A DNA stretch of 26,154 nucleotides from a virus (taxonomy: Duplodnaviria > Caudoviricetes): the IMG/VR virus record IMGVR_UViG_3300028586_000768, positions 1 through 26,154 of that record. One strand, written 5' to 3'. Both the position numbers and the translations under genes were made by a program. Within the stretch, counting starts at the first letter, position 1, and each line of letters starts with the position of its first letter. Positions 858 through 21,732 of this stretch are shown piece by piece. Under the pieces are notes generated by a model. That model ran no database searches and had not been told where the DNA came from. It worked only from the letters and a program-made list of their open reading frames with translations.

Positions 858-2027
858 TCAGCCGAGCATGGCGACGTCGCAGCGGTGTCGCTCGACTTCG
901 CCGTGCTCCCGGTGCAACACGATCAGCCGCATGTCGCGGCCCGCGCGGTAACCCTGCCCTGCGTGCCATGCATCGCGCGCCGCCAGGGTGCGGAAGTATT
1001 CGACAACGCCACCCCGATATTCCTTCACGTCCTGGTGATGGACGTGACCGACGTAGACGTAACGGTGCGCCGTGGCGCCCCAGTCTTCGGGCCGATCGGC
1101 TGCCATCACCGGGATCATGTCCGCGCCTTTGACGGTGTCACCATGCGTTGAACCGATCAGCACCTTGCCGAAGCGGCAGTACCACATCGTTGCCGGCGAG
1201 AGGTCGACCTCGATGCGTGGCTCGTTGTGGAAGTAGCAGGACAACATGAGGGCCAGAGCATAGGACGAGTGCCCGTCATGGTTGCCGCGGTTGATCCGCA
1301 CAATCACGCGCTCATGCCGCTCGAGCAGACGGCGGGCGCAGTGAATCATCGCTCGCAGGCCGACCCGCTGCACCTTCGACCAACGTCCATCGACGTCGAG
1401 TTGGTGACCAGACTGGCTCTGATTTTTCTGATTATCGGCGTGGAACATGTCACCGAGGTTCAGCAACAGCGCAGTGTGCGCCGCCGGCGCGCTGGCCACC
1501 AACCGGTCGACGGCGCCACAGGTCAGCGCCTCCGCCTTCTTCAGGTCGAAATCCTCGCCCGCGTCCTGCCACCAGGCGTGCATGCCGAAGTGCGGGTCAC
1601 CCATGGGATACACGCACATCAGGTCTTCATTGCAGCGAGCGGGCGGATCCGTCATGGGTGCGAGGCCTTTCACCTCCTCCGCCAGGCCGGCGGCGAACTC
1701 GCGCAGCAGCTCGGCCTGTCGCTCGGCGTCAGGAGTCCCGATCACCCACTGTTGCCCGATGGAGCCATCCGCCTTGTAGTTCGTACTGACCCGCGCGAGC
1801 TTGAAGCCGTCTGGAACGGTGCGAGTCATCGCATGATCTGGCGAATAGCCCCGTGCCGCCGCCGAGGCCTTCAACCGCGACATCGACTCTTGCACGGCAT
1901 TTTTTGCTACGCCGAGCTTCTTGGCCGCGGCGCGCATGCTACCGGCCGAGTTGATTGCGTCAATGTACTCAAGCTGACGGACGGTGGCGAACTCGGTCAG
2001 GCGCGTGTCAATTTGGGTTTTGCTCAT
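858..2027 (-). CDS. Calcineurin-like metallophosphoesterase with N-terminal HTH
   Basis: Motifs GDPHFG, LGDMFH, GNHD, THGD, GHVHH; N-terminal GSMRAAAKKLGVAKNAVQ is HTH-like; TAAGGA RBS before ATG 2027. Confidence 0.85.
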   Translation of the reverse strand: MSKTQIDTRLTEFATVRQLEYIDAINSAGSMRAAAKKLGVAKNAVQESMSRLKASAAARGYSPDHAMTRTVPDGFKLARVSTNYKADGSIGQQWVIGTPDAERQAELLREFAAGLAEEVKGLAPMTDPPARCNEDLMCVYPMGDPHFGMHAWWQDAGEDFDLKKAEALTCGAVDRLVASAPAAHTALLLNLGDMFHADNQKNQSQSGHQLDVDGRWSKVQRVGLRAMIHCARRLLERHERVIVRINRGNHDGHSSYALALMLSCYFHNEPRIEVDLSPATMWYCRFGKVLIGSTHGDTVKGADMIPVMAADRPEDWGATAHRYVYVGHVHHQDVKEYRGGVVEYFRTLAARDAWHAGQGYRAGRDMRLIVLHREHGEVERHRCDVAMLG

Positions 2028-2035
2028 GCGATTCC

Positions 2036-2278
2036 TTACTTGGGCCAGGCTTGTACTGTCTTGGAATGGCGGGCGGCACATTCGGCGTATTGGCGGAGCA
2101 GCTCAATTACCCAGGCTTGCCAAGCGTCGTAGTCCGCTGCAGTCGGTCGCTCCACCGGAGCGCACGGTGCCGCCAGGGCGCTATCGAGGGATGCCCTGAT
2201 TGGCGGCGTCGATGGCGGCGTCGAGGTTGCGCACCCGGACAACATCAGGGCGACAATCAGCAGGGAGAGGCTTCGCAT
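2036..2278 (-). CDS. Outer-membrane spanin (Rz1-like lipoprotein)
   Basis: Signal peptide with lipobox LSGC, Pro-rich; overlaps the 3' end of the i-spanin in another frame. Confidence 0.8.
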   Translation of the reverse strand: MRSLSLLIVALMLSGCATSTPPSTPPIRASLDSALAAPCAPVERPTAADYDAWQAWVIELLRQYAECAARHSKTVQAWPK

Positions 2279-4374: not shown

Positions 4375-5267
4375 ACAGTGCTCCCTACGATGGTGCCAGT
4401 TTGAACAAATTTGATATTGGCCGTACCGTTCACGGCGTAGCCGCGCGTGCCTGCCGAGCCGTCGCTGCCGTAGCGGGTCGTGCCACGACTGCCGTTTGGC
4501 CCGCCGGCGCCGCCGCTCCAATTCGTCGCGTTTTGGCCTGACGGAGGAACCACGCCGCCCGGTTGCTGGCCGGCAGTGCCTGAGCCTTGATAAATGCCGC
4601 CGTCACCGCCCTTGCTGCCGGACGGACCGGTGGTGCCAAACGTGCGACTGCCATTTCGACCGGCACCCCACCCGCCATCACCTCCGTTTTGCGTGCTGAT
4701 ATAGGCGTTGCTTACCGAGTCGCGGAAACTCCTACCGCCGCCCCCGCCGCCGCCGCCGCCACCGCCCGAGCCGCCGCTGCCAACGCCGCCCAGCCCAGCC
4801 GCGCCTCCGTCGCCACCCGAAATCGTGCCTTCGTTCTTCACAATGATTTTTGAGGTGGCGTCGAGTGCTGGTCCGCCTGGCGTGCCGCTTCCTCCATCTG
4901 TCGCACTGCCCGCGCCACCGGTCCCGCCGCTACTGCCGCTCTGGCCAGACGGCGTGCCTCCCGATCCACCCGCACCGCCAGCGCCGCTTGTACCGGAGTT
5001 GCCGCTACTGCCGGTCCCATGCACACCGGAGATACCCACGCCACCCTTTACGGTTCCCTTGTTGAGAAGATGAAGAAGCGACCCTGGCGCCCAGCCGGCA
5101 CCAGTAGTCAGCGCCGGCGTCGCAGTGCTGTTCGAGCTGACGGTGCCCTCGACCAGGCAGCGCAACCACACCGGCCCGCGGATGTTGCCGGCGGCGGTGC
5201 GCATGTTGTAGTTGCTCGTCGTACCCGGCCTGAGCGTGACGGGGCGCGGCAGGACGATCGGGATCAT
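4371..5267 (-). CDS. Glycine-rich tail fibre/tip protein
   Basis: Long GGxG and poly-Gly tracts; coupled to both neighbours; in the tail module. Confidence 0.7.
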   Translation of the reverse strand: MIPIVLPRPVTLRPGTTSNYNMRTAAGNIRGPVWLRCLVEGTVSSNSTATPALTTGAGWAPGSLLHLLNKGTVKGGVGISGVHGTGSSGNSGTSGAGGAGGSGGTPSGQSGSSGGTGGAGSATDGGSGTPGGPALDATSKIIVKNEGTISGGDGGAAGLGGVGSGGSGGGGGGGGGGGRSFRDSVSNAYISTQNGGDGGWGAGRNGSRTFGTTGPSGSKGGDGGIYQGSGTAGQQPGGVVPPSGQNATNWSGGAGGPNGSRGTTRYGSDGSAGTRGYAVNGTANIKFVQTGTIVGSTV

Positions 5268-9800: not shown

Positions 9801-12737
9801 CCGCTCTGCGCCCTCCAGCAGCTTGTACCCCTTGCTGCCGTCGGAGAAAAACCCCTTGGCGGCGCTGGCCATGTCGCCATAACCTTGCACCCGGTTCTTG
9901 ATCTCGCGCTCGCCAAGCTCGGTAATAGTCTTCAGGTACGCAACTTCGTTGAAGTCCTTCTGGCCTCGGGCCTTTTCAGCATTTTTGCGAGCCTCAGTAA
10001 TTTCAGCCTGACGCTTGCTGTAGCTGTCCATGTTCGCCATCAGCTTCGACAGCGCGTCGCCGCCGGCGCCGAACGCCTCACGCAGCGCTTCGCCGAACGT
10101 CTGGGCCTTGGATGGGTCGAGGAACTTGTTGAGCTCCTCAAGCGCTTTCTTGGAGGTGTCGTCTGCCTCGGCTTTCGTGGCGCCAACCTGCTTGCCCGTC
10201 GCCAGCTTTCGCAACTCGGCTGCTTGCTGACGGTAGACCTCTACCAGCTCGTGTTCAGGCTTGACTGCGGCGATCGATGCAGCCGTCTGTTCCTTCTGTG
10301 CCGCCGCAGCAAGCAACCGCTTCGCAGCGAGATCGGCAACTTCAATCTTGCCCAAACCGATCTCCGCATTCGCCAGCACTTGCGCATCGACCTGGTCTTT
10401 GAGCGATTTAAGCTCGGCCTCAGCGCTCTGGATGCCCTTACGGTGATTGTCTTCATTGTCTTGGAAGCGGCGGAACTGCGCGGTTGCAAGGTCGTTTTCG
10501 AGTTGGGCTGCTCGACTAACTTTTTCGGCCTGGATCTCCGCAAGATCCCTTTCTACTTGAGCTACCTCAGTCTGCCCATCCCTAAGCTTCCGTGCTAACG
10601 CTAGCTGACGTTGTGCCTTTTTCTCCTTCTCATCTAGAAGGCCAAGCTCCCGCTCCGCCGCCGCCCGCAGCGCTTCGTCCTCACCAATCTCACCGAGAGC
10701 TTTGCGGGTAGCGATGCGCCCTAATTCTCGCTGCAGCATCAGATCGGCAACGCCATCAAGCTTGTGTAGGCCGGCGATACTGGCTTCGATTGATTCGTTG
10801 TTCGCTGCAGCGCGTGCAGCGGCGATGCGCTCGTCGATTTCCTTCTGGGCCACCCCAGCAGCCAGGCCCTCGCGAGTGATTCTCGTTACAGTATTCTCAA
10901 GTTTGGCGGCTTTGCTCAGATACTGGTCGGCGCCATCGTTCCAGGTCTGCAGAGTCTTTTGCATCTGCTGTCGAACGGCTTCCTGCTGCGAATCCCACTC
11001 CTCCTTATTGATCTTGTAGACAAGCTCGATTTCTTCCCGCTGCAGTGCTTTTTTGTCCGCCTGGTTTAATGCACGTTGGGTTGCCCCGGAGAAGCCAGAG
11101 CGATCCCCAAGAGCCATGGGTGACGGGGCTTTGTCGGCATCAGCGAGCGCAGCGCGAACTTCTTCCAGCCGCTCTTTTGGCGTTTGAGTGCGACCCACTC
11201 CAAGGAATTCGTCCCATGCTGATTTAGCCGCTCCAGTGGCGCCGCGCCATGCACGTTCGACGAGCCCCAAATTCTCACGCATTTTGCCTGTGCGCTCAGT
11301 GAACGCTGCGACGTATGCCTTCTGCGCCATTTCGCCGGCCTCTTCGGCCCTGCCTTGCTCTTCCAATGCCTTGATCTGCTCGAGCGTAGTCCCGGTCAGG
11401 TAGCGGTATGCATCGTTCAGTCGGCGGCTGGCCTCGACTGGAGAGTTGCCCAACTCAGCCAAATCGCTGACAGTCGTTTCGATGCTCTGGCCGACATCCT
11501 TTTCCATCTGAACTGCCAGGAGTCCGAAATCGCGAAGATTTTTAGCGCCGACTTGCCCACTGCCAGCGAGCGCAGCGACTGCTTCTGAAGCCTTCGCTTG
11601 CGTACCGGTGGTCTTGCTGATTTCCCGAGCGAGGTCTGCTAATTGGTTTCGGCTGGTCCCTGCGACATTGCCGGACAGGATGATGGCACGGTTGTACGCG
11701 TCAGCCTCTCTCGACCCTTGGTAGTAGGCGGCAGTAAGTGCAACCGCCGCCGCGGCAGCAAGGGTGTACGGGTTAATGAGTTTCATCAGCTCGTTACCCA
11801 AGGCTTGCGCAGCCGGCCGGATGCCGCCGAATGTATCCCTCAGTTGTCCGCCTTGCTGGATCAACACTGTGAGCGGATCCATCCCGCCCTGCAGAGAGGT
11901 GATCATATCGGTCACTTGCGCTGGGACTTGGCGCAACGCGTTGGCGGTTTCACCTGCCGACATGCCGGTGTCGTTGAAGGCCGACTCCGTCTCGCGAAGA
12001 CGCTGGATCAAGGGCCCCGCCTGCTCGGAAATCCCTAACTGCGCCGCCTGCATCTCGAGCAGCTGCGAGCGGGTCTTGCCGATCGAATTGACTTGATTCG
12101 TCAGATTCGAAATGAAGTTATCGCGGCCGGCTTGCGCCTGCGCAGCTTCACGTTGAGCCTGAGCTTCAGCGCGTGCGGCATCGGCAATCTGCTCATGAGC
12201 GGCGCGCATGTTCTGGAGCTGCAGGATCAGATGCGATGCTTCTTGAGCGGCGCCTGCCTGGGCAGCACGGTAGCGAAGCACTTCGTCCGTCGACTTCCCA
12301 TACAGAGCAATCTGCTCACGCAGGCTCGCTACGAAAGCCTCCTTAGTCGCTTGTGCTTGGGCCAGCTCGCGCTCTGCGTCTGCTTGCGCGCGCGCTGACT
12401 CGGCAGCCTGATTCTGGGCCACTTCGACTTCGCGTAGTCGATTTAGGTAAGGGGCGAGAGAAGCGGGATCGGCGAGCTTTTGACTTCCGATCTGCTCAAA
12501 ATAAGCGGCCGTGCTGCGCCCCCCAGCCTCCATTGCAGCAGTGGTGCGCTGGATTGCACCGATGATGGTTCGCTGGGCAGCGTCGATCGTACGCCCGGAA
12601 CTGGAGGCCCGCTCCCCAGCCTGAGAAACCGCTTGACCCGCTCGCTGTGCCGCATCAACAGCCGGCCTGAGACCTGCCTCGACGCCGGACGCATCTGCAA
12701 CCACACGGATTGTTGCCTCGTTGACAATTTCGCTCAT
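6885..12737 (-). CDS. Tail tape measure protein (1950 aa)
   Basis: Very long Ala-rich helical ORF; lambda-TMP-like motif RQVPAQVTDMITSLQGGMDPLTVLIQQGGQLRDTFGG; likely start MSEIVNE at 12737. Confidence 0.95.
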   Translation of the reverse strand: MSEIVNEATIRVVADASGVEAGLRPAVDAAQRAGQAVSQAGERASSSGRTIDAAQRTIIGAIQRTTAAMEAGGRSTAAYFEQIGSQKLADPASLAPYLNRLREVEVAQNQAAESARAQADAERELAQAQATKEAFVASLREQIALYGKSTDEVLRYRAAQAGAAQEASHLILQLQNMRAAHEQIADAARAEAQAQREAAQAQAGRDNFISNLTNQVNSIGKTRSQLLEMQAAQLGISEQAGPLIQRLRETESAFNDTGMSAGETANALRQVPAQVTDMITSLQGGMDPLTVLIQQGGQLRDTFGGIRPAAQALGNELMKLINPYTLAAAAAVALTAAYYQGSREADAYNRAIILSGNVAGTSRNQLADLAREISKTTGTQAKASEAVAALAGSGQVGAKNLRDFGLLAVQMEKDVGQSIETTVSDLAELGNSPVEASRRLNDAYRYLTGTTLEQIKALEEQGRAEEAGEMAQKAYVAAFTERTGKMRENLGLVERAWRGATGAAKSAWDEFLGVGRTQTPKERLEEVRAALADADKAPSPMALGDRSGFSGATQRALNQADKKALQREEIELVYKINKEEWDSQQEAVRQQMQKTLQTWNDGADQYLSKAAKLENTVTRITREGLAAGVAQKEIDERIAAARAAANNESIEASIAGLHKLDGVADLMLQRELGRIATRKALGEIGEDEALRAAAERELGLLDEKEKKAQRQLALARKLRDGQTEVAQVERDLAEIQAEKVSRAAQLENDLATAQFRRFQDNEDNHRKGIQSAEAELKSLKDQVDAQVLANAEIGLGKIEVADLAAKRLLAAAAQKEQTAASIAAVKPEHELVEVYRQQAAELRKLATGKQVGATKAEADDTSKKALEELNKFLDPSKAQTFGEALREAFGAGGDALSKLMANMDSYSKRQAEITEARKNAEKARGQKDFNEVAYLKTITELGEREIKNRVQGYGDMASAAKGFFSDGSKGYKLLEGAERAFRAMELASQMESLYTHLFVTGAKATGTAAGQAVETGAVVAGEAARNVAKVPGVFMSFMSAMGPWGAAAAAVAVAAVLGGAFSGGGGVSVSESRQKSQGTGTVLGSDAKSESIAKSLEMIENATFQGLSVSTDMLSQLRSIDSNLTNFSTLVVQTTGIKGSLADGLESGSGGFWGKLGNSIFGGKTSVEDTGFSMNPIAFADVFRGWVDSYEYADTKKSGGWFSSDKYRTQIEGLGEEGNRQIALVLTSLYGAVESAGGMLGLAGKDFTDKLNGFVVDIGMVSLKGLSGEEIEKEIQAVFSKVGDQLALYSLDGLKDFQKSGEGYLETLTRIATGYQTVTVVADSMGMSFNAIGVGSIAARQRLIDLAGGLDAFKESADSFMSDFYTDKERADALRARIQPTLDKFGIQTGADDSMDQFRDVVKSLRLETAAGAQDFATLMQIMPAFKQIADIDAALFEDQVELARSRRDLEIQIMELTGDKVSALAATRALELAETDGSLHALLERVYGLQDEAAALELAGSKRQLEAQILGLLGDKAGQLAITRELELAGMDPALRALRQRYFALQDEAAAAEAANSLLTLQAQIYELTGDKAGAAAVLAQQHANALKELDPALRTATEQLWGLQAAAKGVEQVKAIAAALVTGVESAFTALQSVVGREKALLQDVANKHKALADALRGTLDSMSVSGQERQDRSAAQAQIAAALAIAKASGTLPDVDSLKGALSIVGKDSASLFSTQEEYLRDFYATQGDIADLAGLTDKTLSVEEQSIKRLDDILANAQQQVNALKGLDTTMLTLVDVMRDFDRVLGSAQADPVASAGGTLTKLYRELLGRAPDAGGLEFYKARLAEGVTLEQIRNDILQSLEYKQLKGIPGFAGGGFFGGGYRVVGENGPELETTGPARIFNASETSGMLARMARPSEDYAALLAEVRVLRTAFGGLFPVLYQVAKNTGRGANSLEKMDRREEVNA

Positions 12738-12749
12738 CGTCCGCCCATG

Positions 12750-12802
12750 AAAAAAGCCGCCCGGAGGCGGCTCTAAATGCAAAAGCCAGCTGTACGCTGG
12801 CT
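12750..12802 (-). terminator. Two tandem intrinsic terminators after the moron gene
   Basis: AGCCAGC-GTACA-GCTGGCT-TTT (12802-12781) and AGCCGCC-TCCG-GGCGGCT-TTTTT (12772-12750). Confidence 0.75.
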
Positions 12803-12811
12803 CAGTTGTGT

Positions 12812-13174
12812 CTACTCGCCCTTAACGCATAAGGGATCTGGTTTTGCTTTGAATCTTCGCTGAAGCGCATCCTCATAGGCCCCGGCAGCAGCGATGCAGC
12901 TGCTGATTGCTCGCCCATATGCAGCGACTTGCTCTTGCTGCTTTTCGGTAGAAGCGCCTTGAGCCAGGCTCTTCCGTATGAAATCTCGGGTTACTTGAGA
13001 GTAGCCCTCATTCCGGATGTGCCGCATTCTGGCTGAGCAATAAGCCTTGTCAAGCTCGCGCTTGCCCGCCTCTTTCAACATGAGATATTCCGGCTTGTCG
13101 CAAAAGACCTCATCTCCAGCCAGCACTGGAACGCTGGCGCCTCCGAGGGCCATAGCCAAGAACAGGTATCGCAT
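12812..13174 (-). CDS. Moron: secreted/periplasmic helical protein with 4 Cys (120 aa)
   Basis: GGAGG RBS before ATG 13174; signal peptide MRYLFLAMALGGASVPVLA; own downstream terminators; lower GC. Confidence 0.75.
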   Translation of the reverse strand: MRYLFLAMALGGASVPVLAGDEVFCDKPEYLMLKEAGKRELDKAYCSARMRHIRNEGYSQVTRDFIRKSLAQGASTEKQQEQVAAYGRAISSCIAAAGAYEDALQRRFKAKPDPLCVKGE

Positions 13175-13224
13175 CGCATCCTCCAAGTTTTGAGGGTGCA
13201 ATGGTACACCAGCCCGAAAGAGCA

Positions 13225-13257
13225 ACACGAAAAGCCCCGTTGAGGGGCTTCCCGCGT
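13225..13257 (-). terminator. 14-bp hairpin / intrinsic terminator closing the repeat RNA
   Basis: - strand ACGCGGGAAGCCCC-TCAAC-GGGGCTTTTCGTGT; fully paired with three G.U pairs on this strand only. Confidence 0.75.
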
Positions 13258-13262
13258 ACTAC

Positions 13263-13322
13263 CCATGCCGTGCCAAACCGCAGCACACCTTAGCTCACCC
13301 TGCTCAGCCAAACCAAACGATG
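13263..13322 (-). repeat. Pentamer array 1 (GGY-NN)
   Basis: - strand CGT-TT GGT-TT GGC-TG AGC-AG GGT-GA GCT-AA GGT-GT GCT-GC GGT-TT GGC-AC GGC-AT GGG. Confidence 0.9.
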
Positions 13323-13374
13323 CTTACCGCATCAGACAGCACCCTCGTTGAAGATGCTGGCTGCTGTTGTCAGC

Positions 13375-13434
13375 CCATGTCTTACCTCGCCAAACCCGGC
13401 CTTAGCTCACCAGGCCTTACCCAAGCCCGCCGTC
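13375..13434 (-). repeat. Pentamer array 2 (GGY-NN)
   Basis: - strand GGC-GG GCT-TG GGT-AA GGC-CT GGT-GA GCT-AA GGC-CG GGT-TT GGC-GA GGT-AA GAC-AT GGG. Confidence 0.9.
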
Positions 13435-13499
13435 AAGCGAACGCTCCGCAGGGACTCGATCCCCAAGAAAACCACCAAGAGCTGACTTCTTGATGACCC

Positions 13500-13524
13500 A
13501 TGGGGTAGCGCCCAGCTACCCCAT
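13500..13524. other. Perfect 10-bp inverted repeat
   Basis: ATGGGGTAGC-GCCCA-GCTACCCCAT; no U-tract on either side. Confidence 0.7.
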
Positions 13525-13570
13525 CCTGCCGGTCTACGACACGCAGATGCGCTTGCAATCGTGCTAGCAC

Positions 13571-13599
13571 TTGCAATAGTCCCAAATTGGGACTAAGAT
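13571..13599 (+). promoter_or_regulatory. higBA promoter with overlapping operator palindrome
   Basis: TTGCAA-17 nt-TAAGAT; palindrome TAGTCCCAA-A-TTGGGACTA (13577-13595) fills the spacer, as expected for antitoxin autorepression. Confidence 0.8.
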
Positions 13600-13608
13600 G
13601 TGCGAACC

Positions 13609-13908
13609 ATGCGCGTAATCTCACTCAAAACCATCCGCGAATTCTATGAGCAACATGACTATGCAGACTCGAAAGAGCCGCTGTTGACTTGGTACAGGCA
13701 TGCACTCAACGCTACGTGGCCCACACCAGCAGATATCAAGGCTGATTTTGGCACTGCAAGCATCCTGAAAGAAGGTCGCGTGGTCTTTAACATCCACGGC
13801 AACAAGTACCGTTTAGTTATTTGGTTCAACTATCCGTATGGAATTGCTTATGTGAAGTTTGTTGGGACGCATGAGCAATACGACGCTATCGATGCTCAAA
13901 CCATTTAA
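13609..13908 (+). CDS. higB: HigB family mRNA interferase toxin (type II TA)
   Basis: MRVIS...W.TPADIKADFGTASIL...RVVFNIHGNKYRLV...VKFVGTHEQYD signature; toxin-first order. Confidence 0.93.
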   Translation: MRVISLKTIREFYEQHDYADSKEPLLTWYRHALNATWPTPADIKADFGTASILKEGRVVFNIHGNKYRLVIWFNYPYGIAYVKFVGTHEQYDAIDAQTI

Positions 13909-13918
13909 GGACACAATC

Positions 13919-14290
13919 ATGAACATCAAACCAATACGCACTGAAGCGGACTATCAAGAAATGCTTCGAAGGGTTGAGTCGCTCATGACGGCCGAGTTTG
14001 GCACGCCTGAGGGAGATGAACTAGATATTTTAGCGACACTTGTTCAAGCATACGAATCGAAGCATTATCCCCTAGAAGCTGCAGATCCAATCGAAGCTAT
14101 CAAATTTGAGATGGAGCGAACTGGCCTGACGCCGCGAGACCTTGAGCCAATGATTGGCAGACTAAATCGCGTCTATGAAGTCCTTTCCAGAACTCGTCCG
14201 CTCACACTTCCAATGATTTGGAGACTACACAAAGGACTTGGCATCCCGGCCGAGGCTTTGATTCAGCCCCCACGAGAACTCGTTGCCTGA
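13919..14290 (+). CDS. higA: HigA family antitoxin (HTH)
   Basis: IKPIRTEADY...GDELDILATLVQAYE...DPIEAIKFEME...RPLTLPMIWRLHKGLGIPAEALI; TAAGGA RBS. Confidence 0.93.
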   Translation: MNIKPIRTEADYQEMLRRVESLMTAEFGTPEGDELDILATLVQAYESKHYPLEAADPIEAIKFEMERTGLTPRDLEPMIGRLNRVYEVLSRTRPLTLPMIWRLHKGLGIPAEALIQPPRELVA

Positions 14291-14332
14291 TATTTCTCGC
14301 TGTTGCTAAGGGAGCGGCAATACTCCCTTTTC

Positions 14333-14641
14333 CTATTCCTCATCTCGATCGTTCATCGCACCGATAGCGGACGCCTCCATCACTTGGATGGACTCCTCAA
14401 GATCTTCGTACTCGTCCCGGGTGAGCTGCATGCGGTCCATCTTGTGGTGCAGCGGGGTGTAGTCCAGGCCGATCACGCCCATGCCGGCGCCGCGCCACTG
14501 CGTGCGCATATACGCGAAGAGGTCGTATGCCGGAATGTTTTCCGGCCAGATCTCAACGTCTTCATGCGGGTAATCCTCCGGCTTGAAGCCGCCGGCCTCC
14601 ATCTCCGCCAGGTCCTTCTTCGAAAGACCCGGCTCGTACAT
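14333..14641 (-). CDS. Tail assembly chaperone C-terminal part (gpT-like, DUF1799-like), probably made as a frameshift fusion
   Basis: EIWPEN...MRTQWR...IGLDY motif; in the -1 frame relative to the upstream chaperone. Confidence 0.85.
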   Translation of the reverse strand: MYEPGLSKKDLAEMEAGGFKPEDYPHEDVEIWPENIPAYDLFAYMRTQWRGAGMGVIGLDYTPLHHKMDRMQLTRDEYEDLEESIQVMEASAIGAMNDRDEE

Positions 14642-14658: not shown

Positions 14659-15111
14659 TTAGTTTCCCAAGCGGCCTTCGTTGATCGCAGCGCGGTAGTC
14701 GTCCTTCATCGCTTCGGCCATCGCAGGGAGGGTGTCGACCAGCTCGGCGACCGCATCCTGGTCGAACTCGGCGTCCAGGTTCCAGCCCTTGACGATCTTC
14801 ATGATGAAGTCGACGGCGACGGCCGACTGACGCTTGACGATTTCGGTCTGCGTGATGGTGAATTCGGGGATCGGGTCACCCGTTTCCTTTGCCTTCTCGA
14901 CGGCAGCCTTGAAGCGCTCGATTTCGACGTTCGCCTCGTCCTTCAGGGTCGCCTGCAGCTGATCGGTCAGTTCGGCCAGCTCGGTGCGCGTGCGGTACTT
15001 GTATTCGACTTCCATCGAGCCGGTCGTGCCGTCCAGCATCGCGGCCTTGATGGTCTTCTTGAAGCTCTCCGGGCGCTTGCCCAGGACGATTTTTTTGACG
15101 GTGTTTGCCAT
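14659..15111 (-). CDS. Tail assembly chaperone (gpG-like)
   Basis: Follows the major tail gene; IVKGWNLD..F motif; ends RLGN on a slippery site. Confidence 0.88.
   Translation of the reverse strand: MANTVKKIVLGKRPESFKKTIKAAMLDGTTGSMEVEYKYRTRTELAELTDQLQATLKDEANVEIERFKAAVEKAKETGDPIPEFTITQTEIVKRQSAVAVDFIMKIVKGWNLDAEFDQDAVAELVDTLPAMAEAMKDDYRAAINEGRLGN
14662..14668 (-). other. -1 programmed ribosomal frameshift heptamer G GGA AAC
   Basis: X XXY YYZ pattern immediately before TAA; the -1 frame (CTA AGA CGG ATC GCG GGC GCC ATG) is open into 14641..14333. Confidence 0.85.
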
Positions 15112-15205: not shown

Positions 15206-15838
15206 TTAGTAGCGGACGACCTTGTTCTGCAGCGAGAAGGTCGCTTTCACGGCCATCACGTTGCCCTTGGACAGGGTCGGCGAAGGGTTGAAGCTGCAGT
15301 AGCCGGCGTAGAGCAGGACGTCACCGCCCGGCATGACCGCCTTCAGGCAGGTCAGCTTCACCCCGTCGGAAATCGCCTGCAGGGCGGCGTGGTGCGGCAG
15401 CGATTTGTCGTCAGCGATGGTCAGGGCGACGCTGGTCGCGCTGAAACCGTCTGGCAGCATCACGGGAGTGTCGCTGTCCAGCAGCTGCACCTCGACTGTT
15501 TTGCCCTCGCCGCCGGAAACGTCCGCCGCGGTGACACCCACGACCGGCACCCAGGTGGTGACCTTGCGCACCGAGCCGATGCCGGCGCCGGCCGGGAACA
15601 GGTTGACGTCGGTGGTGTCCAGTCCTTCCAGCACGAAGTTGGTACCGGTCGGCGACTTCACGCGGAAGACGCGGCCGTTTGCCTTGCTCCAGCCGCCGGT
15701 GTATTCGACGAAGTCGCCGGCGGCGAGGGTGTTGGTCGCGGTGCAGACGGTTTCCGCAGCATTGGTTGCGGCCGTGATCGACACGGCGGTTGCGAAGACG
15801 GACGCGATCGCGAACGCCAGGTTGTTTGGCAGTTTCAT
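15206..15838 (-). CDS. Major tail (tube) protein
   Basis: 210 aa between tail terminator and chaperones; ITAATNAAETV, GDFVEYTGGWSKANGRVFRV, SGGEGK motifs typical of tail tube proteins. Confidence 0.9.
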   Translation of the reverse strand: MKLPNNLAFAIASVFATAVSITAATNAAETVCTATNTLAAGDFVEYTGGWSKANGRVFRVKSPTGTNFVLEGLDTTDVNLFPAGAGIGSVRKVTTWVPVVGVTAADVSGGEGKTVEVQLLDSDTPVMLPDGFSATSVALTIADDKSLPHHAALQAISDGVKLTCLKAVMPGGDVLLYAGYCSFNPSPTLSKGNVMAVKATFSLQNKVVRY

Positions 15839-15878
15839 CAAGGGCCTTTCAGGTAAAGAGCCCGGAAGCCGGGCAAAG

Positions 15879-15926: not shown

Positions 15927-16277
15927 TCAGCAGAACAGATAGAATTCCTGCCTTGATCCTCGGTATTTCGTAGTTGAGTCGTAGTCGTCCACGGCGCCGC
16001 CCACAACCTCAGGCTGCAGCGTTGATGCGGACCGGATGGAGTCGGCGACCTCTTTCCCGACAGCTTCGGCCTCTAGTACGGTCTTGGCCCAGGCGGTCAC
16101 CTGCACGCGGCGGATCTCTTTCTCGGGAATTTCGCCGGTCAGGAAGTTGATTGCTGGGCCACCAACACGCTGTACGACGATATACGGAGTTTCGGCGCCC
16201 TCATCGGCTACCAGCGGGAAGACTCGGCCGCCGGCGAGACCGCTAAGGACTTCCAGAATTTGTGTATAGACGCTCAT
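15927..16277 (-). CDS. Tail terminator / completion protein (DUF3168-like)
   Basis: GRVFPLVA...PYIVVQRVGG...RVQVTAWA; synteny. Confidence 0.85.
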   Translation of the reverse strand: MSVYTQILEVLSGLAGGRVFPLVADEGAETPYIVVQRVGGPAINFLTGEIPEKEIRRVQVTAWAKTVLEAEAVGKEVADSIRSASTLQPEVVGGAVDDYDSTTKYRGSRQEFYLFC

Positions 16278-16792
16278 GAACTGGCGTTCCTTACTAGTTG
16301 CTCGGCGAGGGTTTTCGTCATCACGTCGACCGCCTCATGCTTTTTGCTCTCGTATCCGGGGCGCATGAAGGGGTAGGCCGGCACGCGGGAGTTCCCATAT
16401 TCGAGTTCCGCAGCGCGACGGTGGGCGGCCCAGCCGATTGTTCGACCAGTCTTCGGGCTGACCCGCTTATTTTTCGGTACGAACTTGTGCCCTTCCTCGA
16501 CCCATCGCCAGTAGTAGGCACCTGGGCTCGATGAGGTGCCGCTCCGGACCGTAACGATGTACACCTGCCGCCGGCCGCCATCGGACTCCTCTTCGAGTCG
16601 CTTGACGATGATATTGTCGAACAGCATGCCGGTCTCTTTGTTGGCCAGCGCGTTCTGCTTCACCTGGTCGCGGAAGACCTCGGCGCCGGCGAAGCCGACT
16701 GTACGAAGCATCGACTCATCCACCGAGGCAATCACCTGCTCCGCCGTCTGTTCGATGGTCGCGATGAGGTCAGTAGAGTCGAAATCGATCAT
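16274..16792 (-). CDS. HK97 gp10-like tail morphogenesis protein
   Basis: AYYWRWVEEGH, LEYGNSRVPAYPFMRPGYE; synteny. Confidence 0.85.
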   Translation of the reverse strand: MIDFDSTDLIATIEQTAEQVIASVDESMLRTVGFAGAEVFRDQVKQNALANKETGMLFDNIIVKRLEEESDGGRRQVYIVTVRSGTSSSPGAYYWRWVEEGHKFVPKNKRVSPKTGRTIGWAAHRRAAELEYGNSRVPAYPFMRPGYESKKHEAVDVMTKTLAEQLVRNASS

Positions 16793-17905: not shown

Positions 17906-18438
17906 CAGTTTTCCACCCTGTTGAAGTGCATGGTGCGGTCGAAGCGCTCGCCGTTGGCGCAGGTCACGCGCGCCGTCCAGTAATTCTCGCCGCCAGCGCC
18001 AACGTCCATGCCGCCCAGCTTGATCACCACGAAGCTCCCCTGGACCTGCGGCTGGATGAGAATTTCCACGCCTTTGACCACCGGCTCGACGGATACCGCC
18101 GTGGTGCCGCGATCCTGCAGCTCCTTAGTGATGTTCGCCACATAGAAGCTCTGCTCGTCCGGGTCCTTATCGACCCACCACTTGCCGTCCTTGAAGTACG
18201 GCTCAGGCGCGTTTGTCATTTTTTCTCCTTTCATTCGCCCATTCCATGCGACGTCGAATGTGACAACCCGTGTGCCGCCCCCGAAGGTGACGACACGCGA
18301 GCCGCCGCCGAAAACCACCACGCGCGATGCCGGGATGTCGATCACGTCCACCACACCGTCGCCCGGGTCTGGCGGCTGCATGTGGATCGCTGGCATCTCG
18401 CCCAGGGCCAGCTCTCCGTTCGCATACATTCCGAGCAT
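17905..18438 (-). CDS. Putative fibre adaptor protein (KDPDE motif) with RVVxFGGG repeats
   Basis: TGATG coupling at both ends; C-terminal DKDPDEQSFY...VTCANGERFDRT beta-sandwich-like domain; internal RBS plus ATG at 18219. Confidence 0.65.
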   Translation of the reverse strand: MLGMYANGELALGEMPAIHMQPPDPGDGVVDVIDIPASRVVVFGGGSRVVTFGGGTRVVTFDVAWNGRMKGEKMTNAPEPYFKDGKWWVDKDPDEQSFYVANITKELQDRGTTAVSVEPVVKGVEILIQPQVQGSFVVIKLGGMDVGAGGENYWTARVTCANGERFDRTMHFNRVEN

Positions 18439-20096
18439 CAGATCACCTCCAGGGCATCAGGGGTCGGCCAGAATGGCAGGCCGGTGAACTTCGGCTCCGC
18501 ACTTGGGTACTGCGCGCTGTCGTACACCAGATTGCTGACGTCTGGGTGGCAGCTCTGCTGCGTGCCCGGATCGCCGCCGCAGTGCTTCACATACGCCTTC
18601 TTACCGCTGTCGAAAGTGCCGGCCGGGAAGGTCAGCACGATCTTGTTGCCGACGATGGCGGCCGTTACAGCGATCACCGTGCCCTTGAAATCGGCTTGCG
18701 TGTTCGCGTACCAGCCGGTGATGGCCTGGCCTGCTTTGCGCATGGCGAGCGGCCCTTGCGCGTTCGCCACGTCGAACGTGACGACGTTGCCGGCGCGCGC
18801 GTAGGTCGTTACCCTCGGCCCCATGCCGTCGAACGGCGCCAGGCCCATGCTGAACAGCACGGACTGGATCGCACGGCACAGCGCCCATTCCTGGTAACGC
18901 TTGTCGCCCGCACCATCCTGGAAGTGCAACCCATCGCCACCGTCCGACGGATCGAGGTCGATGCAGTTGAACGGCACCACCTTTGCCCAGGCGTTGGCCT
19001 TCGAATAGGCGAGCACATCAAGCGTAGCGCCGCGAATCTTTTCGATCTGCTGCAAACCTTGGTACACACCCAGCACGCCGGGAACGTAGGAAAGCTGGCT
19101 GGGCGCTCGACCATGTGCGGCGACGTGCGCCATGCAACCGTCAACTAACTGCCGCTCTTTCGTCGCGTAGGCGGCGCGCTCGTTGCCGTCGTTTGCCTCG
19201 CCTTGATGCTTCTGCACGATCTCGAAGTCGCCAAGGTTCGGGGTCTTTAGCCCGAAATCCCCGCCGCTTGTACCGCCGCCGGCGAACAGGCCGGCGACCA
19301 CGCCGCCATTTGGCGGTATAAACGACTCGATGTTGGTAGCGTTCATTGAGCAGGGGATGATCGCGACTGGGATGCGGCGACCATGCTTGGCTCGGAGCGC
19401 CTTCGCCAGCACGCGGGGGAACTTGAGGACGCCGCCCCTTGCGATGTTGAACTGGTGCGTTCCGTAATCCGCTCCCGAGCCGCCCAGGCCTTGCGGAACT
19501 ACAGGGCCGAACGTGCCATCAACGCTATGCGCAGCGTCGGGGTCCACGATGTAGTCGTATTCCGATTTTCCGACGCCGGGAACCTGGTCGCCATAACTTC
19601 CAGCGGCAAGCAGGCTAATGTTGTTCGACTGCCCTTTCGAAAGCACCCGCACACCAACGCCCCATTTCACCGTCCCGCCGTAGACGATGGTCGGACGGCT
19701 CGGATCGCGGATTTGCAGGCGATAGTCGCAGCCGCTCGGAACCCCTTCGAATCTTCCTTGACCCTGTTGGCCGGTGATGGTGTTGCCGGACAGGGTCGTC
19801 CAGTCCTTTACGACGGCGCCCGTGGCGAAGTCCACAGCGCGCGCCTGAACGCTGGCCGGGGGCGAACCGACAAAGCCGTACGCGATGATCGGGTCGTAGC
19901 TTCCTGCCTGGCCTGCGATCGTGTCGTCGTAGGTGCCGGCCTTGCGCTGCATGATGAAGCGCGCTTTGCTGTTGCCGAGCTTGAAGGGGTCGGCGGTAAT
20001 CGAGTCAGGCCCGCTGGGCTGGGCTACTGCTGCGTTGGAGAGCAGGAACCCGGCCTCGAGAATGAGCAGCCGAGAGTTGACGATAAGCGGCTTCAT
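18438..20096 (-). CDS. SGNH-type carbohydrate esterase (sialate O-acetylesterase-like), probably virion-associated
   Basis: GQSNN (catalytic Ser block), HQGEAND and DGLH (DxxH) in canonical order. Confidence 0.75.
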   Translation of the reverse strand: MKPLIVNSRLLILEAGFLLSNAAVAQPSGPDSITADPFKLGNSKARFIMQRKAGTYDDTIAGQAGSYDPIIAYGFVGSPPASVQARAVDFATGAVVKDWTTLSGNTITGQQGQGRFEGVPSGCDYRLQIRDPSRPTIVYGGTVKWGVGVRVLSKGQSNNISLLAAGSYGDQVPGVGKSEYDYIVDPDAAHSVDGTFGPVVPQGLGGSGADYGTHQFNIARGGVLKFPRVLAKALRAKHGRRIPVAIIPCSMNATNIESFIPPNGGVVAGLFAGGGTSGGDFGLKTPNLGDFEIVQKHQGEANDGNERAAYATKERQLVDGCMAHVAAHGRAPSQLSYVPGVLGVYQGLQQIEKIRGATLDVLAYSKANAWAKVVPFNCIDLDPSDGGDGLHFQDGAGDKRYQEWALCRAIQSVLFSMGLAPFDGMGPRVTTYARAGNVVTFDVANAQGPLAMRKAGQAITGWYANTQADFKGTVIAVTAAIVGNKIVLTFPAGTFDSGKKAYVKHCGGDPGTQQSCHPDVSNLVYDSAQYPSAEPKFTGLPFWPTPDALEVI

Positions 20097-21550
20097 CAAG
20101 CCACCGCCACCGGCGTTTGCACTGCCTCAGCCGAGCCATCCGGGTACAAAACCCAGAGGTAGTAATTGCCCGGCGAGCCACCGCCGTACACGGTTCCCTG
20201 CACCGAGAACAGGCCGGGGTAGCCGTTCTGGTCGAGGTACACCAGGCCTTGAACGGAGTTCGGGACGGCGCCGCTATTGCCGCCATTTGCGGAGAATGGC
20301 ACTTCTCCCGGCCACGACCCATTGCTAAAGGCGACTGGCGGCGTGGTCGGGCTCTTGCCCCAGCAGCACCGGATCTGGGGCGATTGCGCAGGGTAGTCCG
20401 CACCGTTCTTGATGTAGACGTTGACGAGTTGCGCCCAGTAGCGGTTAGGAGCCGCACCGCCGTCGTACCCGGACGAAGCCGGGAAGTTGACACCCGGCGT
20501 GGCCGCGTAGGTGTCCGCCATCGCAGGCGTGGCATTCAGCATGGTCACACTGTCGCTCAGCACGTTGGAGATCGCGCTGGCCGCGTCGACCGCGCGCACA
20601 CGCAGCTGGTCGGTGCTGCCGGCGGAGCGGCCGGTGACGGTGCGGCTGCCGGCGGCGAACGCATGGTCGGTCCAGGTGCTACCGCCGTCAATGCTGGTTT
20701 GCACCTTGCTGCCGTTGCCGTTCGCGTCGGTCGGCGCGTCCCATGCGAACGTGTATCCGCTCGACGCAATGCTTGTTTTGGCGATGCTGCCGGAAATGAC
20801 CGGCGCCGCATTTCCGCCGGCGGATTGCAGCGTGACCGATAGGGTTGCGGCCGCCGAAACGCTGCCCGAGGTGTCGACAGTCCGCACGCGCACGGTATCG
20901 GTGCTGCCTGCGGTGCGGCCGCTCACCGCAAAGGTGTTGCCGGCGGCGCCACCGCTGACAGGTGTCCAGGTCGACCCGTCAAGGCTCCATTCGCTGCGCG
21001 CCACGGCGACGTTGTCGTTGCCGGGCGTGAAGGTGATGGTGTAGCCAGTTTGGCCGACGTTCGTCGAGGCCAGGTTCGTCGGCGCGCCCGGCGCAGTACT
21101 GTCCGCTGGCGGGGCAGTGCCGCCGATGTATGCCTTCAGCACCGCCGCCGTAACCAGGAATGCTTCATTCGACGGATTCAGGGCCAGCAGGCGTGTCGCG
21201 TCGGCAATGGACTGCACCGGCAGCGCCCCTACCTGGATGCCATTCAGGTATTGCGCCGGCGCTGCGCAGAAGATCTGCTTCAAGCCACCGGGAAACGTCA
21301 CCGCCGCGCCGCCGGTCCAACTGGCCAGCACCTCGAGGCGGGTCAACTGGGTCGGGTTATCGACCCTGTACAGGCTCAGTTCCCACGAAGCGACGCTCTC
21401 GACGCACATTGGCACCTCGTCGCCAATCGCCAGGTCGCCATGGGCGATCGCCTCCGCGATTGTGCGGAAGCCAGTGACGGCGCCGCCCAGGGTAATGGTT
21501 GCAGTGCTGGTGGCGTTGAACGATTGGCGGAGACGGTCGACGACTTTCAT
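20096..21550 (-). CDS. Fibre-like protein with two FN3/Ig-like domains
   Basis: N-terminal DR...TITLGGAVTGFRT...WE...LTR...VTFPGGLKQIF fibre-anchor-like domain; DSTAPGAPTNL and repeated VSGRTAGSTDTVRVR / VTGRSAGSTDQLRVR. Confidence 0.75.
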   Translation of the reverse strand: MKVVDRLRQSFNATSTATITLGGAVTGFRTIAEAIAHGDLAIGDEVPMCVESVASWELSLYRVDNPTQLTRLEVLASWTGGAAVTFPGGLKQIFCAAPAQYLNGIQVGALPVQSIADATRLLALNPSNEAFLVTAAVLKAYIGGTAPPADSTAPGAPTNLASTNVGQTGYTITFTPGNDNVAVARSEWSLDGSTWTPVSGGAAGNTFAVSGRTAGSTDTVRVRTVDTSGSVSAAATLSVTLQSAGGNAAPVISGSIAKTSIASSGYTFAWDAPTDANGNGSKVQTSIDGGSTWTDHAFAAGSRTVTGRSAGSTDQLRVRAVDAASAISNVLSDSVTMLNATPAMADTYAATPGVNFPASSGYDGGAAPNRYWAQLVNVYIKNGADYPAQSPQIRCCWGKSPTTPPVAFSNGSWPGEVPFSANGGNSGAVPNSVQGLVYLDQNGYPGLFSVQGTVYGGGSPGNYYLWVLYPDGSAEAVQTPVAVA

Positions 21551-21732
21551 GCGGAGTGGGCCTTGTTTTCGTTCCCAAGCAGCCCGCGCACGTGGGCGAG
21601 CAGCTCGTCGTCGGACTTGCCGACTATGTCTTCGGGGAGCATGCGCAGCTGGCCTGCGCACACCAGGATGGTGCCGGGCACCTCCGCCTCGGCACGCAGC
21701 TTGGCGAGCCAGGCGGAAGTGTCAGGGCTCAC
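21547..21732 (-). CDS. Hypothetical protein (61 aa)
   Basis: GTG start 2 nt after the upstream stop; ATGA overlap with the next gene. Confidence 0.55.
   Translation of the reverse strand: MSPDTSAWLAKLRAEAEVPGTILVCAGQLRMLPEDIVGKSDDELLAHVRGLLGNENKAHSA

Follow-up and report, generated by a model that had tools for sequence, protein, structure and literature searches.

The window analysed here, the whole of IMG/VR record IMGVR_UViG_3300028586_000768 (26,154 bases), carries on its minus strand the late operon of a siphophage, with genes for the portal, capsid, tail tube, tail chaperone, a DUF1799 protein, tape measure and lysozyme. The record is partial, ending in the terminase region and lacking the early genes. 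Relatives of the DUF1799 protein (59-72% identity) in three Massilia genomes point to a Massilia-like host. The head genes are interrupted by two large ORFs (18438-21661, minus strand) of 553 aa and about 480-520 aa without a Pfam match, the second of which displays, by eye, repeated fibronectin-like segments. The lysis genes are followed by a 407-aa ORF (858-2081, minus strand) with an N-terminal HTH (PF00126, below cut-off), which presumably carries metallophosphoesterase-like motifs.

A cassette of two guide arrays lies between the DUF1799 and tape measure genes. It is followed on the same strand by a 121-aa ORF with a signal-peptide-like start (12812..13177, minus strand) and preceded by a structured leader (13435..13530, minus strand) with several hairpins, a third CATGGG (13502) and a small T-arm-like hairpin, for which neither a vap remnant nor a homologue was found. 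Beyond the leader stand, on the plus strand, higB (PF09907) and an HTH gene that is higA by position (13609..14290). A palindrome (13577-13595) located inside the spacer of a promoter-like TTGCAA-17-TAAGAT ahead of higB, and also encountered in four other genomes (L042, L044-L046), is likely an antitoxin operator. The slot between DUF1799 and the tape measure spans 60-504 nt in 37/38 related loci where measurable, and none of the 38 has higBA or an array in it; the cassette is therefore regarded as an accessory insertion.

The two minus-strand modules have a period of 112 nt, and each consists of 10-11 YNNGG units followed by CATGGG and a structured tail. Array A (13375..13434, minus strand) comprises 10 variable YNNGG units, one doubtful 5′ unit and a terminal CATGG, with the NN series GG TG AA CT GA AA CG TT GA AA, and array B (13263..13317, minus strand) comprises 10 variable units and a terminal CATGG, with the NN series TT TT TG AG GA AA GT GC TT AC; counting the terminal unit, the totals are 11-12 and 11, respectively. 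A preliminary description of this DNA had proposed two in-register GGY/NN arrays on the minus strand, both ending in CATGGG, and both points hold: GGY units amount to 8/11 and 7/11, the best two scores in the window, against 100 simulated windows in which a maximum of 7 was reached once and 8 never, and CATGGG is found at 13379 and 13267. The regular repeat of the modules stands likewise, with the approximate period of 110 nt replaced by the exact value given above. The GGTGAGCTAAGG scaffold that had been singled out does recur at an equal offset (13411, 13299) and is no special feature, being a GC variant ordinary in the clade (91/725 units). Among the arrays of kin the terminal unit is near-invariant (YATGG in 40/66 arrays) and the NN vary among 62 unique guides.

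As also stated earlier, this is not a CRISPR array: repeat-spacer structure is absent from the sequence and there is no Rfam CRISPR match. No Rfam family reached its gathering score in the window, and two chance matches (E 4-5) came up locally; no tRNA or tmRNA was found in the window, and an INPHARED blastn search with the array region returned no match. A function other than guiding, i.e., a binding track for a TRAP-like ring protein, an attenuator or a short peptide gene, could appeal to the 5-nt periodicity, which resembles that of TRAP sites, and to a 78-aa frame overlapping array B. The peptide alternative, which the preliminary description had itself raised, meets stops in all three minus-strand frames over 13225-13434 and the lack of an NCBIfam family for the 78-aa frame; the absence of an Rfam match, tails that are those of vipr loci and NN that decode to a codon-phased 20/20 target (both set out below) also speak against a function other than guiding. 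This non-guide reading is largely refuted, and its residual probability is negligible.

Both tails are structured, as had been claimed, the first of them forming three abutting hairpins instead of the single one described, and they represent two types, internal and terminal. The internal tail (13319..13374, minus strand) is made of hairpins H1 (13374-13363), H2 (13362-13334) and H3 (13333-13319), and the terminal tail (13215..13262, minus strand) contains a hairpin (13257-13225) that scores as a terminator, in agreement with the proposal that the last hairpin doubles as one. When both strands were folded, the minus strand was favored, again as described (z -3.0 vs. -1.3 and -5.7 vs. -3.3). The three-hairpin model, in which nested helices alone are counted, has 94% of cells paired across 17 internal tails, and its score is reached by no slid control and by none of 500 shuffles, in a shuffle test that is inflated by the relatedness of the sequences. 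Across these tails 10/13 pairs of the middle helix H2 are changed on both sides, and the outer helices H1 and H3 show no two-sided change; in the internal tail of the window itself, one pair of H2 does not form. The TCAACG motif reported at both apices is indeed present (13351-13346 and 13243-13238) and fails as a family signal, since 1/17 internal and 1/7 terminal tails have it, in both cases those of the window itself, and 27 copies occur in the window. A search pattern built on TCAACG as a conserved handle matched 0 viral contigs. The three-hairpin tail with its compensatory changes is useful for finding further cassettes.

The grammar published for the vrRNAs of VIPR systems is 9-16 YNNGG units plus a tail (10.64898/2026.04.26.720920), and both arrays of the window have 9-16 such units with fixed GGY and variable NN, and end in a conserved 3′ tail common to vipr-linked arrays. 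When 301 family genomes were searched at the DNA level, a single strong match emerged, L041, in which two genes are followed by three arrays, then a small ORF and a tape measure gene, and the first protein matches SUSP1 Vipr (PDB 36pp) with an E of 1.6e-45. A search with the tail pattern found 4 viral loci, each with vipr-vap; tails of this kind stand behind vipr-vap in L041, L126, L127, and L128. The order in L128 is DUF1799, arc-like, antirepressor-like, vipr, vap, arrays, ORF and tape measure, that is, the same slot as in the window, where higBA occupies the place of the relatives' arc/antirepressor-vipr-vap. The window's internal tail is 90% identical over 61 nt to the tail behind vipr-vap in L150, its terminal tail is closest to that of VIPR-positive L126, and a homologue of the 121-aa ORF lies behind the arrays of the latter. 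Near-identical tails thus follow vipr-vap in related phages, the conservation beside homologous arrays on which the preliminary description had made its case depend. As separate observations, the vap of L126 (3322-3634 region) is shorter than those of L041 and L128 by an in-frame internal segment of ~16 codons, and the cultured Pseudomonas phage Medea1 (INPHARED MW862109.1:8595-9158), whose Vipr is annotated as hypothetical and is 72% identical to that of L128, is a source of a closer effector.

No vipr or vap was found in the 26,154-base window, the best tblastn match (27.7 bits) being partial and elsewhere, and a complete VIPR system, with vipr and vap beside the array, is absent from it. 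Solo vrRNAs are defined in 10.64898/2026.10.15.759431 as those with no Vipr match either on their contig or up to 20 kb away, a definition that the window fits across a partial record extending about 13 kb either side of the arrays. An improbable alternative is that the vrRNAs are not truly solo, vipr being carried elsewhere in the prophage or host and guide B repressing the phage's own late operon or co-resident kin. It draws on a record that stops in the terminase region, without early genes, and on the existence of a longer contig with identical proteins, L182. Against it, vipr stands directly ahead of the arrays in the closest relatives, type II vipr was not found in 110 Massilia genomes with the query used, bar one weak partial match, and the published VIPR-positive guides are without self-matches (10.64898/2026.04.26.720920).

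Further evidence that the modules are guides comes from the target of array B. Decoded with the published 1-nt-skip rule, leaving out the near-invariant terminal unit, guide B has a predicted target (15222..15250, plus strand) that it matches at 20/20 and that covers the last codons of the tail-tube gene (15206-15841, minus strand; VKATFSLQNK). The skipped bases are codon position 3 and codon positions 1-2 are read, i.e., a natural target of at least 80% under a 1-nt skip with the wobble skipped, as in known vrRNAs. Within 1.02 Mb, skips 0 and 2 gave at most 15/20 and skip 3 matched only the array itself; 0/1000 unit shuffles exceeded 18 in the window, and the chance expectation of the 20/20 match is 6e-9, five guide variants and four skips having been attempted in the decoding. 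The exact matches in IMG/VR (17/17, representing 11 distinct sites, several of them shared with an earlier set) all lie in tail-tube C-termini of proteins 74-98% identical; at the skipped bases they are 69% identical to the window, and no vipr was found in their fetched flanks. Guide B scores at least 18 in 13/36 kin tail tubes, and its site is found at 18/20 in the near-complete VIPR-positive G306. The tail-tube C-termini of 7 VIPR-positive records comprise one that scores 18 and six that score at most 10, the site at up to 3 mismatches occurs in 0/40 further VIPR-positive records, and the tail tube of L126 reaches 10/20; none of the VIPR-positive alleles seen is matched by guide B as well as its own (20). 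We consider it highly probable that the modules of the window are solo type II vrRNAs and that guide B is aimed at the phage's own tail-tube gene. The multi-guide precursor with handles put forward in the preliminary description survives in outline, as a VIPR vrRNA array; that account left the system unnamed, missed the absent effector and the own-gene target, and over-read the TCAACG apex.

A full target of guide A was not found in the window, family genomes, Massilia genomes or viral matches searched. A candidate partial target (14759..14787, minus strand) lies in the tail assembly chaperone gene, at its GWNLDxxFD motif, and is matched at 15/20. On the chaperone motif of kin, 15/20 is reached in 34/38 loci vs. 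0/300 shuffles, with none above 17/20; the 11/27 chaperone matches of a relaxed guide A pattern are not independent support, this pattern having been drawn up after the motif was seen. Other candidates were rejected, namely matches at up to 2 mismatches in 6/401 family genomes, scattered over unrelated genes or frames; matches at 3 mismatches in 5/110 Massilia genomes vs. 9 control matches; 12 exact 16-base viral matches that share no common gene; and a match of 18/24 where the portal gene starts, which is within shuffle range (8/1000).

A metagenome scan returned 4 loci, two of which are VIPR-positive, a third being L182, which agrees fully with the window in all that was compared, namely five proteins and both arrays, and the fourth L183. 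The latter, seen over 10 kb, bears a vipr-less three-guide cassette (4825-5190, minus strand) in the DUF1799-tape-measure slot, with three intact guides on tape-measure motifs, the third parsed by hand. Guide 2 matches its own tape-measure gene at 19/20, and guide 3 has a self-match of 18/20 over the last 10 units, its full length giving 24/30 on self vs. 27/30 on VIPR-positive L126; another guide reaches 19/22 on a kin-type tape measure. As a control, the last 10 units of 43 guides were scored from 26 VIPR-positive records (1.23 Mb), 24 of which have arrays. Self-matches of at least 90% were found for 3/5 solo guides vs. 0/43 VIPR-positive guides (Fisher p 0.0006), or by locus 2/2 vs. 0/24 (Fisher p 0.003), in a small sample where two solo cassettes are set beside controls with parsed arrays, many of them distant or partial, and where guides of one locus do not count as independent. 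The self-avoidance of VIPR-positive guides is graded, not absolute: 7/43 self-match at 80-85%, and 9/43 reach 90% on another record. Neither a pattern nor a covariance model, the latter run without a positive control, revealed further solo cassettes in 110 Massilia genomes, and 38 + 28 vipr-less tail loci contained none; the genus of G010 consists of one genome.

Whether the self-match or the loss of vipr came first is beyond sequence alone to decide, and a relic would predict just such a link between self-match and missing vipr. Recombination would then have joined a VIPR cassette with a targeted tail module, and self-silencing would have selected the loss of vipr-vap, with higBA instead, the guides being left over. 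Capture of this kind would often create a self-match, as guides of VIPR-positive kin often match family structural genes, and L126 is a plausible donor type, given its closest terminal tail, same downstream ORF and non-matching tail tube. The broken H2 pair in the window's tail also fits a relic, as does the array region itself, ahead of which no minus-strand promoter above threshold was found. On the opposite side, all tails and registers are intact in both solo cassettes, which are without a vap remnant, and dropping one 112-nt guide would presumably be a cheaper remedy than the loss of an effector. We regard a relic as a strong rival to the active role described below, though less likely than not.

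The window is itself matched by guides of rival phages. Two sites in its HK97-gp10-like neck gene (16274-16792, minus strand), at 16365 (24/28) and 16479 (27/32) within 16365..16525 on the plus strand, correspond to the terminal guides of VIPR-positive L126 and L128 (86% and 84%), which reach 26/28 and 30/32 on a kin neck allele, L128's own allele giving 22/32. The phage of the window is therefore a predicted victim of armed relatives. L183 is similarly matched by guides of G306 (19/20) and G304 (18/20). Among other VIPR-positive records, guides of G416, G418, G422, G423, G425, G428, and G430 match one another at 18-19/20, which suggests mutual targeting among the armed phages of this set. For a phage so exposed, RNAs that merely titrate a rival's Vipr off its own guides, target identity being secondary, would help, and the solo vrRNAs of satellites send Vipr to decoy targets, according to 10.64898/2026.10.15.759431. 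The comparison in that text was a non-targeting solo vrRNA, and protection tracked many-copy decoy targets, whereas the window's target is present once, within an essential gene. A pure sponge is accordingly a very unlikely reading.

The active alternative, in which the solo guides would load the Vipr of an incoming relative and steer it onto family-shared tail genes, is in our judgement an even bet as a whole mechanism. The lysogen would transcribe the cassette, and the precursor would be cut into two ~110-nt RNAs, by analogy with SUSP1 vrRNAs, which provide the basis for such processing (10.64898/2026.04.26.720920). The type II Vipr of the incoming phage would load these RNAs; as described in 10.64898/2026.04.26.720927, Vipr polymerises on GGY units starting at the tail end and opens DNA while skipping every third base. 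Guide B might then block the tail-tube region of any matching phage, intruder included, whose late operon would be silenced. With the resident's late genes off, a self-match would be cheap, and a Vipr-less phage would therefore be free to target family-conserved codons. The broader proposition that Vipr-less prophages evolve such "turncoat" cassettes against their own family-invariant structural codons is advanced tentatively, at somewhat below even chances. Were it true, this would be an RNA-only superinfection immunity using the attacker's weapon, affordable only to an effector-less dormant genome. Several facts oppose the active model. The array is inside the late operon, such that lytic read-through would yield a self-harming guide if Vipr were present; the missing promoter counts here as well, as does the fit of guide B, which is better on self than on armed alleles. 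The two RNA-run contigs cover higBA only, being contigs unable to show small RNAs. One run contig equals the window over 11500-14465 with zero differences and is possibly the window's own source, hence not independent. Compared with a relative's vipr, the run contigs gave a single 91-nt vipr-like piece at depth 3, the window's contig having depth 55; such missing cover is no proof and is given no weight here.

Cas-less CRISPR loci offer a comparison, since they too yield a multi-guide precursor and tolerate self-targeting spacers without an effector. The window differs from them in its non-contiguous code and in the absence of repeat-spacer structure. The closest known system is type II VIPR, described in 10.64898/2026.04.26.720920 (SUSP1/P. 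fulva clades) and 10.64898/2026.04.26.720927, with which the window has in common YNNGG arrays with a 3′ tail, a 1-nt-skip code, wobble-phased targets, tandem vrRNAs and rival-phage targets, and of which the kin's cognate protein, matching SUSP1 Vipr, is a further sign. However, the window's record is without vipr or vap; the SUSP1 tail is described as a pseudoknot, whereas the window has three abutting hairpins or a terminator-like hairpin (counting nested helices); and the window has a perfect self-target, whereas the discovery paper has none at 80% or above (10.64898/2026.04.26.720920).

Solo (orphan) vrRNAs are known from F5 satellites and VIPR-null Enterobacteriaceae phages, in which Vipr is presumed to be borrowed in trans, as reported in the available text of 10.64898/2026.10.15.759431. 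They resemble the window in that one or more vrRNAs remain where vipr-vap1 was lost. The target scan in that text covered vipr, vrRNA, satellite and MG1655 sequences; it names as target classes REP decoys, vipr, rival vrRNAs and satellites and remarks on self-avoidance, and the carrier's structural genes are not among these classes. VIPR and solo vrRNAs are already published, and self-directed solo guides against structural genes appear to be new, no report having been found in a literature search that covered the available article texts. The self-match in both solo cassettes provides a handle on the loss of vipr and on the limits that autoimmunity sets on guide choice, and bears on whether an RNA cassette of 200 nt can redirect the effector of a rival against that rival. 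In contrast to the published solos, the window's guide is directed at a tail gene that its carrier shares, in a Massilia-type prophage and beside higBA, which extends the VIPR conflict to Massilia-type siphophages, with guides that converge on neck, tail-tube and tape-measure genes.
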